A DNA stretch of 64,000 nucleotides from a virus. Numbering within the stretch: the stretch's first letter is position 1; each line of letters begins with the position of its first letter. The DNA is taken from the IMG/VR virus record IMGVR_UViG_3300033153_008203, positions 81,070-145,069 of that record; one strand, written 5' to 3'. The position numbers and the translations under genes were made by a program. The notes beneath the pieces were generated by a model. The model saw only the letters and a list, made by a program, of their open reading frames with translations. It had not been told where the DNA came from and ran no database searches. Shown here piece by piece: positions 37,315 through 55,146 of this stretch.

Positions 37315-37758
37315 TTATATAGTGTTCTCTGTATAACTAAGTCTTAATGATACGTCAAGCTTTAGCCCTACATGTATTCCTCTTGGTGATGTTATTCTAT
37401 ACCAAAATGGTTCGCTTCCTATGCCACTTAATTCATTTGGATCATCTGGAATTGAAACAGATGCTCCCGCCGTTATTGTAGCCCATTCAGCATCTGATGG
37501 CTGAAGATTTCCAAGACTAATCTTAATACTCCATCCAGACTGAATCCCCTCTATATCATTAGGATACTCTGTGTCAGCAAAATCAATTACAACATCAGTG
37601 TATTCTTTTGCAGCATCATCGTTTCTTACATATAAAAGAACATCTCTAGATTGCTCTACACGTCCATCATGAACTGTTGTAATTGGATTTGTCTGGTCGC
37701 CGTTAGATGAGTAAGCAGTCCATTCTCCACCATCTAAATCTACTACTTGAATTCCCAT
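37315..37758 (-). CDS. hypothetical beta-sandwich virion protein
   Basis: 147-aa beta-rich ORF (LYVRND, PFWYRI) coupled to the terminase stop. Confidence 0.55.
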   Translation of the reverse strand: MGIQVVDLDGGEWTAYSSNGDQTNPITTVHDGRVEQSRDVLLYVRNDDAAKEYTDVVIDFADTEYPNDIEGIQSGWSIKISLGNLQPSDAEWATITAGASVSIPDDPNELSGIGSEPFWYRITSPRGIHVGLKLDVSLRLSYTENTI

Positions 37759-40700
37759 TAGATATTGCTCCTGCTAGGTCTTGAGTTTCTAGTTTTACTG
37801 ATTCCTTTTCTAATCACTTTACTATTTACATTATTGTACCCTTTAATCATTCCTGGCAAACCCCTGCTAAGAATCATATCGCTCTCTATGGAAAATCTTT
37901 CTTGAGGTCTTGCTGCATCTCTTTTATTATCAGCTTGCTTTCTTCTGTAACTGTTCTCTATTACAAGCTCAATTGTTCCTGGCATAGGCGCTTTCTTAGA
38001 AGCTGGCATATCACCAAAAGAACCACCAAATGAAACTGCACTAATAACAAGTGATTGACCAAACTCTGTGTATTCCATTGTAAATGCAAGTAGCGCTAGT
38101 ACCATAGCATCTAGCTCATGGTCTCCAACTCTCTTATTTCCCTGAGCATATACTGGCGCACCAGACTGAGTCCTTCTTTCAACTACGTAACCAAGCAACT
38201 CTTGCTCAAGTTCATCGTCATGTTTTGACAACTCTATTAGGTCGTGCTCAAAATACCTTACTGAGTTCTCTATCATGTATGGCTTAGCAGGCTTATTTTC
38301 CGTTATACCAGTCCTTATGTTTCTGGTTTCAAGAGTACCGCCAGCACTAATACCTTTTACATATCTAAGCATAGAATCAGGATGAGCTGCACCTACCTCA
38401 CTAAGACTCTTTTCTCCAAACTGTTGAAGCAACTCTATTTGAGTCGTACCGAATCCAGCATCACAATAAATATGTGCACATTGCCAGTATTTATTTACTT
38501 CTCTTATTTTGTCTATTGCTATTAACTGAGTCCATCCAACTCTATCTACACAGTGTTTTGCTACAATTCTATATTTATTCTTAGCTGTGTCGTGCCCTAT
38601 AATACAAATCTGCGTACCTATGGCTGTGTCGTTCCAGTCCACACCCATTGTATAGATCCATCCATCCATTCTTTTCTGTTCTTCATACTTGTATTCCGTT
38701 AAAGCCTTATCAACATACTGGTTCTGATAAACGCCTTCTACTTCTTCTCCAAACTCAGCAAGGATCTCGTGCTGATATCCGGCCTCTGTTCCAGCATCAA
38801 GCCTGGCATCCCTATCCATCTGATCATTCCAGAAAGGAAGAACTGTTGAAGGATAATGAAACTCTCTAAATCTTGAGTCATGGCACTGGTCATAGAAACG
38901 CTCTCTACGACCTGTTGGAGTACTACTAGTCCATAACGTAACATTTGGGTTAGTATAAAGAATCGCTCCAATAGCATTAAGGTCATCAGGATCAAGGTAA
39001 TCGGCCTCGTCAAGATATAGTGCATCAGCAGAGTTATGAACAATAACATTATTTGCTATAAAATTATGTGTATCGCTAACCTCTATGTCATATGCTAACT
39101 CTTTCCCGATATAGAATATGGATTTAATTGTATCCAGAACGACATTATTGCTTTCAGACTTGTGATATTGGCTCTTAGTTTTATGTTTAACTAAATCAAA
39201 AACTTCAGCGCAAATCTCTTCTTTTCCATAAATATATCCTATATCAGACAAAAACCTTCTAACATAAAAGCCAGATCTAACTTTAACGATATATTGTTTA
39301 GCAGTATTATAGTGCTCCCATTTCTTATCTCTTTCTTGTATTTTTGATACAACTCCGAGTTCAGCTAGTAATTCTTGTAGCTCATGAGCCAACCGCTTAG
39401 ATACTGTGCAATATCCGATCTCTACTTGTGGTCCTCTCTTTTGATTAGAGTAACAGCACCAGCCATCTGTTGCAAACAGTTTTCTTATGAATAGTTTTTT
39501 ATTCTCTTTTGTGCTTGTTTTGATTATAGATGGGACGTGCTTATCGTATGAGAGTTTGTTTGCAACTTCATACTTTTCTAGAATGTCTAGAATGTGTTTA
39601 TGTTTTATTTTAAGACCACTTACCCTGATATTTTTAGTGTTTTTCGTTTCTTTCTTATTTTGAATACCAAAATAAACGTCCTTTTTATCAAGAATGTTGG
39701 TAAAATCATTAAGAATTTTTACATTTTCATTTATAAAATCAATAGCACCACGATCAATTACCTTCTTACCACAGCTTCCATCACCTATCATATATGCTGC
39801 AAACGATATCTCATCTTCATCTAACGCATTAGCTTTCTCAAGATCATAGTCAACAACATAAGACAGATTATCTCCTACTCTCCAGTCTTTAAGGCTTTTC
39901 CATTCAAATTTATTCCCAGCCCTAACCACATTAGAATCATGTCTAGTACCAACTCTTCCATATAGTTCATGATCTTTGCTGCAACTTATTGATCTTCCTG
40001 ACTCAAGTTTAACTTCAAACAGATCTTTTACATTTGACTCAAAAACATGACTAACTGTTCCAACCACTTTATTATTATACTCATCAACTGAAACAACTCT
40101 GTCTCCAACCATAATGTCTTTAATGTTCTTTGCTTTACCTGAAGCCATTAGTACTGCAGAATCGCACCTTAAGCACTGGCCTCTTACACCGTCTCCCTTA
40201 GATCCGCTTCTAGAACCAGAAGTAAACAGTTTTATAATAGATCCATTATGTAGCTCTATTTCTGCATAAGGAGTCTTAACATTTCTTTTGAGGGAATTTT
40301 TTAAATCATTAGAATCAAATATAAGCTCTATCAATCTGTCATAAATGACCTGAGCATGAGACTTCTGTGGGCATACAACAAGAATATCATGACCATTTCT
40401 AGTAGACGCATTGTACAATATGTTTATGCAAAGGGAATCTGTTTTTCCTGATCTACGACCAATTCGTGAAATTTTTCTTTTTGCATCACACCTAAGCATT
40501 GTAGCTTGATATTCTATGTCATCTCTAGATGTACGTGGGTGCCAATCAAGAACAGCAGCTGCCCATCCAATAGGATCAAGCAAAGAGTTTGCTGCTTTTG
40601 CTTGTGCATCAGTTAAGGTTTTGCCTGATTGCTTTGCAAGCTTATATGCTGCCGGAAATATACCGGTACAATCTGCATCGAAAGTTCCATCCTTCGATTT

Positions 40701-40766
40701 AGCCATTACCTTTTCTCTACAACGAAGACACTCTTCGCTTATGTTAGGATCATTAAAATCTGGCAT
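37758..40766 (-). CDS. terL: terminase large subunit (intein-containing)
   Basis: Walker A GRRSGKT, Walker B LYLDEAD, STPTG coupling motif, and RNase H-type nuclease motifs MGVDWN and DHELDA. Confidence 0.95.
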   Translation of the reverse strand: MPDFNDPNISEECLRCREKVMAKSKDGTFDADCTGIFPAAYKLAKQSGKTLTDAQAKAANSLLDPIGWAAAVLDWHPRTSRDDIEYQATMLRCDAKRKISRIGRRSGKTDSLCINILYNASTRNGHDILVVCPQKSHAQVIYDRLIELIFDSNDLKNSLKRNVKTPYAEIELHNGSIIKLFTSGSRSGSKGDGVRGQCLRCDSAVLMASGKAKNIKDIMVGDRVVSVDEYNNKVVGTVSHVFESNVKDLFEVKLESGRSISCSKDHELYGRVGTRHDSNVVRAGNKFEWKSLKDWRVGDNLSYVVDYDLEKANALDEDEISFAAYMIGDGSCGKKVIDRGAIDFINENVKILNDFTNILDKKDVYFGIQNKKETKNTKNIRVSGLKIKHKHILDILEKYEVANKLSYDKHVPSIIKTSTKENKKLFIRKLFATDGWCCYSNQKRGPQVEIGYCTVSKRLAHELQELLAELGVVSKIQERDKKWEHYNTAKQYIVKVRSGFYVRRFLSDIGYIYGKEEICAEVFDLVKHKTKSQYHKSESNNVVLDTIKSIFYIGKELAYDIEVSDTHNFIANNVIVHNSADALYLDEADYLDPDDLNAIGAILYTNPNVTLWTSSTPTGRRERFYDQCHDSRFREFHYPSTVLPFWNDQMDRDARLDAGTEAGYQHEILAEFGEEVEGVYQNQYVDKALTEYKYEEQKRMDGWIYTMGVDWNDTAIGTQICIIGHDTAKNKYRIVAKHCVDRVGWTQLIAIDKIREVNKYWQCAHIYCDAGFGTTQIELLQQFGEKSLSEVGAAHPDSMLRYVKGISAGGTLETRNIRTGITENKPAKPYMIENSVRYFEHDLIELSKHDDELEQELLGYVVERRTQSGAPVYAQGNKRVGDHELDAMVLALLAFTMEYTEFGQSLVISAVSFGGSFGDMPASKKAPMPGTIELVIENSYRRKQADNKRDAARPQERFSIESDMILSRGLPGMIKGYNNVNSKVIRKGISKTRNSRPSRSNI
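39033..40175 (-). mobile_element. intein with LAGLIDADG endonuclease (381 aa) in terL
   Basis: VRGQ|CLRCDS ... AYDIEV..HNFIAN.VIVHN|SADALYLDE. Blocks FAAYMIGDGSC and LFATDGWC. Inserted just before Walker B. Confidence 0.95.
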
Positions 40767-46202: not shown

Positions 46203-46651
46203 TATCTATCGTCTCCTGATCCTTGAAGTTTACCTCTTGCTTTACGTGACGCTAACTTTTCAAGGTTATATTTGGCTATATCGCTAAGCTTAACCTCGAA
46301 GACTCTTGCTGTTTCTGCCAAATACCACAAAACGTCAGAAAGCTCAGATTTTACTACATCTTTAGCCATCTCATATATCTCACCAGTTTCTTTGTCTCTA
46401 TATGTTCCCTGGTGATCTCTAACTATCTTTTTAAGTTTACCAAGAACTTCTCCTGCTTCATTAGCCAGACCCATTGCTGGGTAGATATAATCAGCATCAT
46501 TGTGTTTTCCGTCACTATCTACTACTATGATTTTAGGATAAATAGCTGTCTTTGCTGCTTCTTCCTGATATGTGTCAAAATTAATTTCGGCGCAAACTTC
46601 TTCCTCTGTAATGTCTCTTGTATTAGTCTTACCTTTCTTAATTATACTCAT
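46202..46651 (-). CDS. mazG: MazG-like nucleotide pyrophosphohydrolase
   Basis: GLANEAGEV...ELSDVLWYL...NLEKLASR..RG.L.GSGDDR. Confidence 0.9.
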   Translation of the reverse strand: MSIIKKGKTNTRDITEEEVCAEINFDTYQEEAAKTAIYPKIIVVDSDGKHNDADYIYPAMGLANEAGEVLGKLKKIVRDHQGTYRDKETGEIYEMAKDVVKSELSDVLWYLAETARVFEVKLSDIAKYNLEKLASRKARGKLQGSGDDR

Positions 46652-46935
46652 TATATCTTTTCCGCTTTTATTATGTATGTGGTTCCGTCTACTGTTACAA
46701 TGCCACCAAAATAATCTGACCTTACTGTTAACCCTGATCCAGAAGAATCAGTAATTATATCTCTTAGTCCCAGTTGTTTTATAACGCTTAAAATACAATT
46801 TTCCAATAGACTCATACTGGCAGGATTTTCGTGCTTATCATCGCCAACACTAAATGTTGCACCAGGATTCTGCAAAGCTTTTCCAAGAGCTTCAAGTGCC
46901 ATTCCTGTTGTCTTTCCGTATCTTCTTACTTCCAT
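46651..46935 (-). CDS. small protein with a terminase-type Walker A start (RRYGKTT)
   Basis: RRYGKTT followed by helix and strand, as in TerL RRSGKT. No Walker B. Confidence 0.6.
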   Translation of the reverse strand: MEVRRYGKTTGMALEALGKALQNPGATFSVGDDKHENPASMSLLENCILSVIKQLGLRDIITDSSGSGLTVRSDYFGGIVTVDGTTYIIKAEKI

Positions 46936-51356: not shown

Positions 51357-51385
51357 ATTATAGCGGGGAAATTCGATTTTGTCAA
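51357..51385 (-). promoter_or_regulatory. consensus sigma70 promoter
   Basis: TTGACA-N17-TATAAT, exact match. Confidence 0.9.
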
Positions 51386-51398
51386 GTGTTTTCTTATT

Positions 51399-51818
51399 CT
51401 ATTTCCAATTATAAGTTTCTGAATTACCAAGGTGAACATTTACCCTAGCAGAAAGTACAGCAGAGCCCAAACAGCGTCTTACAGGCTCTTTCATCTCATG
51501 AACGTTACATACTATACATATACTCTCAAACGTCCTCATATGGAAGTCCTCGGGCTCTGAGAGCAGACTTATGGAGGAGTTTGTATTTCTATATATTAAG
51601 AATGTCCCATTCTGAGTTCCAATATAATCTGGAGCACTAAGACTCATAGGACGTGGCTCTGTTTCTAAGTAATGTATGACTTTATCGTATACAGTTCTTT
51701 TCTCACTAGGTAGACAAACAATTCCCACATTTTGATACTCATTAGGTGGAGCACATGATATAACCGCCTTATTCATCATTCTCGTAAATCTGTAATCTCT
51801 ATTCGGTATCTTAACCAC
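51399..51818 (-). CDS. degenerate terminase ATPase-like fragment lacking Walker A/B
   Basis: NVGIVCLPSEKRTVYDKVIHYL aligns by eye to TerL DILVVCPQKSHAQVIYDRLIELI, and NSSISLLS to NGSIIKLFT. Confidence 0.5.
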   Translation of the reverse strand: MVKIPNRDYRFTRMMNKAVISCAPPNEYQNVGIVCLPSEKRTVYDKVIHYLETEPRPMSLSAPDYIGTQNGTFLIYRNTNSSISLLSEPEDFHMRTFESICIVCNVHEMKEPVRRCLGSAVLSARVNVHLGNSETYNWK

Positions 51819-52015
51819 TATTTGACCTCATTATCAAAGATACTACACTTATAAGCACATGTATTTACTGCTGATATTATGCCGGAGCAAATATGCTCTT
51901 CCTCACAAAAAAGATAAGCATCTGAAAACACTTTCCCACTTATATCAGCATCAACACCAACGACTGATATCGAACTACCATTCTTATTCTCTACGCTTAA
52001 CCATAACCAGTACAC
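51818..52015 (-). CDS. hypothetical protein
   Basis: 65-aa ORF in the operon. Confidence 0.4.
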   Translation of the reverse strand: MYWLWLSVENKNGSSISVVGVDADISGKVFSDAYLFCEEEHICSGIISAVNTCAYKCSIFDNEVK

Positions 52016-52191
52016 TCGTGCTGAACATCTGCATCTCTTAAAGCTTCTATAATATGGTCATATGTTGTAGTCCTATCAAGAAAATAAGTAACAACCACAA
52101 TCTTTCTAACACAAGGCCAAGTGAAGTCATGTAGTATCTTCCTTAGCATTCTCTTTGCTCTATACTTTTGATTTGGTATACCGTTCTTCAT
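51997..52191 (-). CDS. hypothetical protein
   Basis: 64-aa ORF, TAATG-coupled to the mini-tube gene. Confidence 0.5.
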   Translation of the reverse strand: MKNGIPNQKYRAKRMLRKILHDFTWPCVRKIVVVTYFLDRTTTYDHIIEALRDADVQHECTGYG

Positions 52192-52550
52192 TATATAACC
52201 TTACAAGCAATACACTCGCATTCCTTAGAAGGATTGTGCCACCACGTAACACATTGTAGGTCAAACGCGTTTACTTCGCCGGGGATTATTTCTTCTCTCG
52301 CTGTAATACCATGAATAGACATTATCTTCTCATTACCATATTCATCAGAACAAGATAATATAAGATCGGATTTAAAATTAAGATCCATAGCACTAATATA
52401 TTCCTCTTCGTCTAACACAGCTATACTAGCTGTTTGACCTTCAACAGATATCGCCCTGATCTTGCCTATCTTAACGTCGCTCTGGTAAACATCCATATTT
52501 ACCCCACTGAAACCATTGAAACTAAATTCATCTGCTGTATTACTCTTCAT
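52191..52550 (-). CDS. miniature paralogue of the tail tube protein (internal hairpin deleted)
   Basis: Gap-free blocks FNGFSGVNM...IGKIRAIS vs YNSFSGVDI...IGALQGIS, and DLILSCSDEYGNEKIMSIHGI vs DVTLSAANEYGAVSVMRIYGV. SD AAGGAG. Confidence 0.8.
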   Translation of the reverse strand: MKSNTADEFSFNGFSGVNMDVYQSDVKIGKIRAISVEGQTASIAVLDEEEYISAMDLNFKSDLILSCSDEYGNEKIMSIHGITAREEIIPGEVNAFDLQCVTWWHNPSKECECIACKVI

Positions 52551-52577: not shown

Positions 52578-52606
52578 AGTATAGCGACTTTATCTAGTTT
52601 TGTCAA
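52578..52606 (-). promoter_or_regulatory. near-consensus sigma70 promoter
   Basis: TTGACA-N17-TATACT directly upstream of 52550. Confidence 0.85.
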
Positions 52607-53059: not shown

Positions 53060-53088
53060 ATTATAGCGGGGGATTTTGTTTTTGTCAA
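53060..53088 (-). promoter_or_regulatory. consensus sigma70 promoter
   Basis: TTGACA-N17-TATAAT. Shares CCCCGCTATAATAGAGTAA with the promoter at 51357. Confidence 0.9.
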
Positions 53089-54602: not shown

Positions 54603-54631
54603 ATTATAACAAGTGTTCGCCGATTTGTCAA
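54603..54631 (-). promoter_or_regulatory. consensus sigma70 promoter with extended -10
   Basis: TTGACA-N17-TATAAT with TG at -15/-14. Confidence 0.9.
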
Positions 54632-54638
54632 GGGAAAT

Positions 54639-55037
54639 CTAGTGTTTAGTCCTCTTTCTTCCACCTTTATCCATGGCTTTTGTTACTGAGTCTACTAGGC
54701 CATTAGAACAGAATGGTTTCTCGATGTAATCACATACTCCTCTTGCCAGTAAGCAAGTCTTACTCGCTGTTCCTGTCGCTGTAAGCACAACTATTGGTAT
54801 ATCGTTTATTGCATTCATTAATGCAGTCTTTTTTACAAAAGTGCAACCATCCATTCCTGGCATTTTAAGATCAAGAAGTATTGCGTCTAAATTCTCATTA
54901 TGTGCAATCTCTATTGCTTCTTCTGCAGTATTTGTAGTGAGGACATTAAATCCTTTAGTCTCAAATAAGAATTTAAGCATTGCTAGTATTTGATCATCAT
55001 CGTCAACTATTAACAGTGTGCTGTCTTCTTCAATCAT
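54639..55037 (-). CDS. stand-alone CheY-like response regulator receiver domain
   Basis: LLIVDDD, ILLDLKMPGMDG (phospho-acceptor Asp), VVLTA and YIEKPF. Start moved to 55037 (SD AGGAG). Confidence 0.92.
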   Translation of the reverse strand: MIEEDSTLLIVDDDDQILAMLKFLFETKGFNVLTTNTAEEAIEIAHNENLDAILLDLKMPGMDGCTFVKKTALMNAINDIPIVVLTATGTASKTCLLARGVCDYIEKPFCSNGLVDSVTKAMDKGGRKRTKH

Positions 55038-55146
55038 CTGTATTCTCCTGGTTTGAATTGTACTCATAAGCAAGGTGCAAGTCATAGATGTAGAGCGATA
55101 TTTAATATAAAAAGATTATTGGAAGATAATGCTAAACTATGTACGA

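Follow-up and report, generated by a model that had tools for sequence, protein, structure and literature searches.

A stand-alone phage protein with a terminase-ATPase-like predicted fold and without the catalytic motifs, encoded behind a host-type promoter together with a putative tube-fold mini-protein

The locus and its operon

The window, which here means the whole stretch of 64,000 nucleotides that was analysed, is the final part of an IMG/VR virus record of 145 kb (IMGVR_UViG_3300033153_008203). Its minus strand carries the structural module of a myovirus, with genes for sheath, major head protein, portal and a large terminase (TerL) of 1002 aa. Judged by the major head protein, the nearest cultured relatives are the Moorella phage MTATph1 and the Bacillus phages of the 0305phi8-36 type, at merely 30-37% identity. 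The same strand harbors a small operon, the last gene of which had been described in an initial annotation as a catalytically dead look-alike of the terminase ATPase. We refer to this gene as paralogue B, or B, and its surroundings are as follows:

52578-52606, minus strand: sigma-70/sigma-A-type promoter of the operon mini tube - A - B, TTGACA-17-TATACT, 11 of 12 positions
52191-52550, minus strand: "mini tube", 119 aa, first gene of the operon, with a tube/Hcp-like fold in a low-confidence all-beta model
51997-52191, minus strand: N-terminal fragment of paralogue A, 64 aa, cut by a frameshift (BLASTP to the N-terminus of B, E 3e-5)
51818-52015, minus strand: C-terminal fragment of paralogue A, a 65-aa ORF in another frame (family profile positions 77-125, E 6e-8)
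51399-51818, minus strand: paralogue B, probably dead terminase-ATPase-like protein, 139 aa, stop codon included in the coordinates (ORF and sequence)
51357-51385, minus strand: perfect consensus promoter right downstream of B, TTGACA-17-TATAAT, 12 of 12 positions
53060-53088 and 54603-54631, both minus strand: the other two perfect promoters, TTGACA-17-TATAAT

B is a real gene. It starts with a GTG (51818-51816) that shares one nucleotide with the upstream stop codon and is translationally coupled, it is preceded by the Shine-Dalgarno sequence GAGG (51829-51826) 7 nt 5' of the start, and it ends with the stop codon at 51401-51399. All strings that the initial annotation quoted from this DNA are found where it had placed them. 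It had also put B downstream of a promoter at 52578 and into one operon with the mini tube, and both statements hold: the sigma-70-like element matches the consensus as listed, no terminator is predicted between this promoter (52606-52578) and the ORF, and thus B and a small protein with a tube-like fold, the model of which is of low confidence, stand behind one early host-type promoter. The perfect promoter at 51357-51385 starts the next transcription unit and thereby bounds the operon. Perfect TTGACA-17-TATAAT sites occur three times in the window, with 0.04 expected, and all of them lie within 3.3 kb, which indicates that this region is read by the host polymerase and is therefore early.

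Two of the three perfect promoters have the spacer end CCCCGC in common. The one at 54603-54631 lies at a phage gene of the early region for a stand-alone response-regulator receiver domain protein (54639-55085, minus strand, 148 aa, PF00072, E 2e-22). Elsewhere in the window, a 94-aa ORF without any match in Pfam (46651-46935, minus strand) has the N-terminus M-E-V-R-R-Y-G-K-T-T, a P-loop-like string at the start of the chain. It is located directly upstream of a 149-aa ORF, and relatives have a MazG-family gene at the place of the latter, an assignment that stems from weak precomputed Pfam hits in three contigs. The initial annotation had flagged the 94-aa ORF as another candidate fragment resembling terminase.

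The low-confidence model of the mini tube has Hcp, the tube protein of the type VI secretion system, and phage tail-tube proteins as top structural matches. Moreover, BLASTP aligns the mini tube weakly but collinearly with the tube protein of this phage (22625-23263), the middle part of which has no counterpart in the mini tube. The model in the ESM Atlas is too poor for use (pTM 0.27), and a metagenome scan found no further homologues of the mini tube.

A fast-evolving tandem family

B has eight close homologues at 55-72% identity, all of which start with M-V-x-I-P-N-R-D-Y-R-F. All homologues of the family, close and distant, come from metagenomic phage contigs. B gave no match against 50,697 phage records with megablast and tblastn, and a scan of IMG/VR with the group-B alignment returned no relatives besides the window's own record. 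An exhaustive phmmer search added two true distant relatives, P0011 and P0013. P0011 (173 aa, on a 142.9-kb contig) is B-like and has an N-terminal CxxC...CxxC extension resembling a zinc ribbon. Three repeat proteins were rejected as relatives: P0012 and P0014 match solely via one short segment that recurs in them, and the match of P0015 is likewise made up of many short stretches.

The family falls into four paralogue groups of about 125 (A), 140 (B), 149 (C) and 150 aa (D). The genes are arranged in tandem, in the order A-D-B-C in contig L008 and mini tube - A - x - D - B - C in contig L007, and group D is known as the N-terminal half of the 292-aa protein P0016. The latter is encoded on a 1.5-kb contig as a single ORF in which paralogue D is fused to paralogue B. 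Three of the contigs that bear the family also encode homologues of this phage's TerL, as judged by matching contig sizes. The family, with as many as four copies in tandem (A, D, B, C), was found only in relatives of this phage. Furthermore, three unnamed clusters that lie nearby in the Atlas are mostly viral, and their lengths fit B (142 aa, 62 members), C (150 aa, 50 members) and A (124 aa, 115 members).

Paralogue A is intact in contig L002 as a 125-aa ORF, relative to which the window has a 4-nt gap. The N-terminal fragment in the window matches the family profile at positions 1-60 (E 3e-12). The frame of A is shifted by -1 in the window and, as an independent event, by +1 in contig L010 (129-459), at about the same place in the hairpin region. 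A programmed frameshift was considered and rejected, since the two shifts go in different directions and a slippery heptamer is present at neither site. The splits of A are more likely independent decay.

Together with an in-frame TAA at about codon 29 of paralogue B in contig L009 (about 1573-2007), with raised dN/dS values of 0.32-0.76 for B, and with the N that the window copy has at a position where most group-B homologues have D, these frameshifts could be taken to mean that B is a decaying, functionless relic of an old terminase-domain duplication. We give this explanation very little chance, as six of the seven contigs for which the DNA was read have B with an intact frame although the proteins diverge by 28-47%, none of the 15 pairs reaches a dN/dS of 1, and the group-B alignment has 21 invariant columns that cluster in motifs. 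The translationally coupled start with its Shine-Dalgarno sequence and the well-populated Atlas clusters also argue against a relic. Between the window and L002, dN/dS is 0.47 for B and 0.10-0.23 for five neighbouring genes. The family is therefore an optional, fast-evolving accessory family with some constraint remaining, which is dispensable in some genomes.

The true terminase and the likeness in sequence

The reference for the comparison is the phage's own terminase gene, which is also the source of the TerL strings quoted in the initial annotation:

37758-40766, minus strand: authentic large terminase, 1002 aa (PHROG terminase large subunit, E 2e-24)

This gene contains an intein of 381 aa (about 39033-40175) between VRGQ and SADALYLDEADYL, with the boundary pattern C...HN/S. 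The intein interrupts the ATPase domain after the Arg motif V-R-G-Q and ahead of Walker B. The initial annotation had mentally spliced out this segment, and it did so correctly; VRGQ and SADALYLDEA flank the intein. Homologues of TerL without the intein have 621-628 aa and are up to 93% identical over the searched segment (residues 60-197); those with an intein have 989-1207 aa and carry the Pfam families PF14528, PF14890 and PF01079. As both forms exist, the intein looks like a mobile element.

The resemblance between B and TerL that had been proposed from the letters holds for the fold, as seen in structure searches, but not for the sequence, where the likeness does not exceed chance. BLASTP of B against the phage's own TerL gives an E-value of 3.7. 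The Smith-Waterman score against the spliced TerL ATPase is 30, compared to a mean of 28.8 for shuffled sequences, and was reached by 183 of 500 shuffles. When the family profile was aligned with a TerL ATPase profile of 12 sequences using hhalign, the score was 21.4 (E 0.018), which 10 of 150 block shuffles reached. Sequence homology of B and TerL is therefore not claimed here. B has no Pfam family at E-values up to 1, none of the 20 family members matches a terminase Pfam family (Terminase_6N PF03237, TerL_ATPase PF03354, GpA_ATPase PF05876), and single sequences as well as profiles found neither a PHROG match nor a PDB sequence match to terminases. The hhalign alignment is collinear over 120 columns, and its register is identical to that of the initial annotation and to that of the structural alignment. 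The aligned pairs, B on TerL, are:

NVGIVCLP on DILVVCPQ
NSSISLLS on NGSIIKLFT
the H-M-R stretch on V-R-G-Q
ICIVCN on LYLDEA
RVNVHL-GNSET on NPNVTL-W-TSSTPTG

The predicted fold

An AlphaFold2 model of B, computed from the 20-sequence family alignment, has a pLDDT of 78.5 and a pTM of 0.76 and consists of helix, strand, helix, hairpin, strand and helix. A Foldseek search of this model against the PDB, the check that had been suggested for the terminase reading, has T4 gp17 and D6E TerL as its nine top matches, with probabilities of 0.89-0.99. In a library of 48,161 chains, nearly every solved packaging-ATPase family tops the ranking. The ESM Atlas includes the exact sequence of B with a single-sequence model of its own (pTM 0.74). 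Of the ten sets of structural neighbours of that model, seven belong to TerL families of Pfam (PF03354, PF03237 or PF05876) and three have no Pfam family, with TM scores by query of 0.65-0.70. A search of the Atlas with the AlphaFold2 model gives a similar picture. Terminase ATPases thus come first in the PDB, BFVD and Atlas searches as well as with the Atlas's own model, as expected for a terminase-type ASCE fold.

It could be argued that B is just a small alpha/beta domain of ASCE or Rossmann-like type, for which terminases come first among the P-loop folds by chance. This has little chance of being true, because the packaging ATPases not only top the large library but also give the longest alignments, with 118-127 residues compared to 86-94 for AAA+ and STAND proteins, and all their matches begin at the position of Walker A. 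Moreover, in the independent single-sequence model all neighbours with a Pfam family are terminases, the Pfam-bearing neighbours of B according to a protein language model are three TerL ATPase families, and the register of hhalign is the structural one.

In BFVD, the top match is annotated as large terminase and is followed by many uncharacterised phage proteins of 110-180 aa. In their match to the model of B, the latter are roughly on a par with true terminases (TM 0.5-0.6 both ways), and their sources are unrelated phages, which include Acinetobacter AbTZA1, Gordonia Hedwig, Mycobacterium Ryadel and Catdawg, and Rhizobium RHph_I38. According to these models, small terminase-ATPase-like proteins may be widespread.

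Motifs that have been lost

The initial annotation had stated that Walker A is absent from B and that the DE of Walker B is lost, and the sequence bears out both. The ORF contains no GxxxxGK[ST] and not even a GK[ST], and it has ICIVCN where TerL has LYLDEA. At the Walker-B place, eight of nine group-B sequences read IYIV[SCG]D, mostly IYIVSD, with the window copy having N and not D; this place is taken by a basic residue in group C and by C-E in group A. Residue 1 of the B model aligns to residue 159 of T4 gp17, right before the Walker A of T4 gp17, which we take to lie at residues 161-167. As the chain begins at the position of the P-loop, B has no beta1 strand and no upstream adenine-binding (Q) motif. 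Its N-terminus is V-K-I-P-N-R-D-Y-R-F, and the family-wide I-P-N-x-x-Y-R stands in the place of the P-loop. At the other end, B stops past the helix that follows the Walker-B strand, and hence without the C-terminal part of the ATPase domain and without the RNase H-like nuclease domain. What B retains, according to the model, are the post-P-loop helix, beta2 and the helix belonging to it, the beta-hairpin of terminase type, the strand of Walker B and the next helix.

Without beta1, Q motif, Walker A, the Asp-Glu of Walker B and the nuclease, B cannot bind or hydrolyse ATP as TerL does, and thus it would have to act by binding. As judged from the model, B is a binding module without enzyme function. 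Taken by itself, the reading of B as a stand-alone, catalytically inert terminase-ATPase fold is highly probable.

What the protein may do

B would then be the stand-alone, inert core of the ATPase domain of a large terminase, presumably made early by the host RNA polymerase together with the tube-fold mini-protein. We infer that B, as a look-alike of TerL, may occupy a partner that recognises TerL early in infection. The leading candidate for this partner would be a terminase-sensing immune receptor of the host, of the Avs1-3 or Upx type. If the receptor were engaged without being productively activated, B would be an anti-defence mimic. The initial annotation had proposed a terminase decoy co-transcribed with the tube decoy, a reading that is supported in part: the fold, the missing Walker motifs and the common early promoter speak for it, but a decoy role towards Avs1-3 has no support. 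The mimic is ranked first because small TerL-like ligands of Avs2 as well as sensors of the tail tube are described in the literature. The whole statement, that is an inert TerL ATPase core which acts early as a TerL look-alike and mimics the ligand of a terminase-sensing receptor against defence, is still only tentative, and we consider it more apt to be wrong than right. Ksap2 and vs.8, the precedents, trigger Avs2 and do not block it (PMC11564622, PMC13601566). Avs2 furthermore uses the ATP that is bound to terminase (PMC13601566), but B has no P-loop. Finally, the recognition of terminase by Upx has been modelled on the strands beta1, beta4, beta5 and beta6, of which B certainly lacks beta1.

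A rather doubtful, but serious rival is that the terminase-type ATPase half-domain, be it by descent or by convergence, is an exapted scaffold with a job unrelated to TerL mimicry, for example a host take-over factor that binds a host protein via the N-terminal I-P-N-x-x-Y-R or the acidic EPEDF loop. Early phage genes of the size of B mostly act on host targets. The motif I-P-N-x-x-Y-R is the most conserved one across all paralogue groups and has no counterpart in TerL, and the missing significance of the sequence likeness to TerL fits a scaffold as well. A conserved role in nucleic-acid binding or as a DNA mimic is unlikely, since the isoelectric point varies from 4.9 to 8.6 among the orthologues. 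On the other hand, the partner in the operon, with its tube fold, likewise resembles a late virion protein, which would be an odd coincidence if mimicry were irrelevant. In addition, small TerL-like proteins of other phages do engage terminase sensors (PMC13601566).

B might instead interfere with packaging or assembly by binding TerL, the portal or the small terminase, either as a poison or capping subunit that hits phage competitors or resident prophages, or by regulating the motor of the phage itself, and the mini tube might do likewise for the polymerisation of the tail tube. Terminase ATPases, such as that of P74-26 and others, work as rings with trans-acting arginine fingers. In this respect it is of interest that an invariant Arg of group B (R95) is at most two alignment columns away from the invariant Arg of V-R-G-Q, just upstream of the Walker-B strand, and that a tube protein without the polymerisation hairpin could conceivably cap a growing tube. 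We nevertheless regard interference as quite improbable: B is under early host-type promoters, far from the packaging genes and ahead of TerL synthesis, and a protein of this kind would put the assembly of the phage itself at risk. When B and the ATPase domain of TerL were predicted as a complex (alignment of intein-free homologues, residues 60-318), the score was 0.00, which weighs on neither side.

The anti-defence mimic can be extended to the whole operon. Mini tube, A and B, or A-D-B-C in relatives, would then form an early battery of proteins that resemble the terminase ATPase and the tail tube in disabled form and that blind receptors like Avs1-3, Upx and Avs16. The look-alikes would bind the receptors and prevent their oligomerisation before the real terminase and tube appear. 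If true, this battery would represent the first immune decoys modelled on a phage's own core proteome. We consider it unlikely. Concerning the tube part, Avs16 grips a hairpin of the tube (PMC13581612), and this hairpin is absent from the mini tube according to the initial annotation.

No other protein pattern that bacterial immune systems sense is as well documented as terminase (Avs1-3, Upx). Should B suppress terminase sensing, phages would employ copies of their core proteins as decoys, and should B set it off, it would be one more alarm signal specific to a lineage. With neither effect, B would be a terminase half-domain put to a new use.

Comparison with known systems

Compared to the ATPase domains of TerL proteins (T4 gp17, Sf6 gp2, P74-26, D6E, HK97 TerL, phi29 gp16 and HSV pUL15), B has the same predicted fold and the same order of elements from the position of the P-loop to the helix after Walker B, hairpin included, and the TerL-type match covers 118-127 of its 139 residues. 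Unlike TerL, which is a late packaging gene, B is an early gene with a host-type promoter and has no HMM match.

The ATPase domain of TerL alone is sufficient to activate Avs2 and Upx (PMC13601566; PMC11564622), and the interface with Avs2 includes the terminase-bound ATP (PMC13601566). Ksap1, Ksap2 and T4 vs.8 have a terminase-like structure, dock in the same pocket of Avs2 and activate it (PMC13601566; PMC11564622). The authors of these studies suggest that the three proteins may originally be anti-defence proteins, and they ask for Ksap2 and vs.8 whether such small terminase-ATPase-like proteins are anti-defence factors (PMC13601566; PMC11564622). The tail tube is sensed as well, by dedicated Avs families, among which Avs16 grips its beta-hairpin (PMC13581612). 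The anti-Avs proteins known so far, one a ligase and the other with a Rossmann fold, are not mimics (10.1101/2025.06.06.658234).

Ksap2 (Bas60_220) of Stephanstirmvirinae phages, a KpAvs2-stimulating protein, is an activator of Avs2 by experiment (PMC11564622; PMC13601566). It has no sequence relation to the B family (hhalign E 0.37 over 10 columns against Bas60_220), and it is a single gene between nrdA and nrdB, whereas the B family forms a tandem array of paralogues. T4 vs.8 is, like B, a stand-alone TerL-ATPase-like early protein apart from the true terminase. It has 219 aa and reportedly has sequence homology to T4 TerL, retains both Walker A and Walker B and is toxic together with EcAvs2; it has been modelled in the terminase pocket (PMC13601566). 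The B family lacks both Walker motifs and has no detectable sequence relation to vs.8 (hhalign E 0.38).

Stand-alone terminase-ATPase-like accessory proteins are thus already known with Ksap2 and vs.8. The B family is an independent and more radically stripped example without nucleotide site and therefore a clean test case, and it is distinct in being cut at the P-loop, in its array of up to four paralogues and in its operon with a tube-fold mini-protein.
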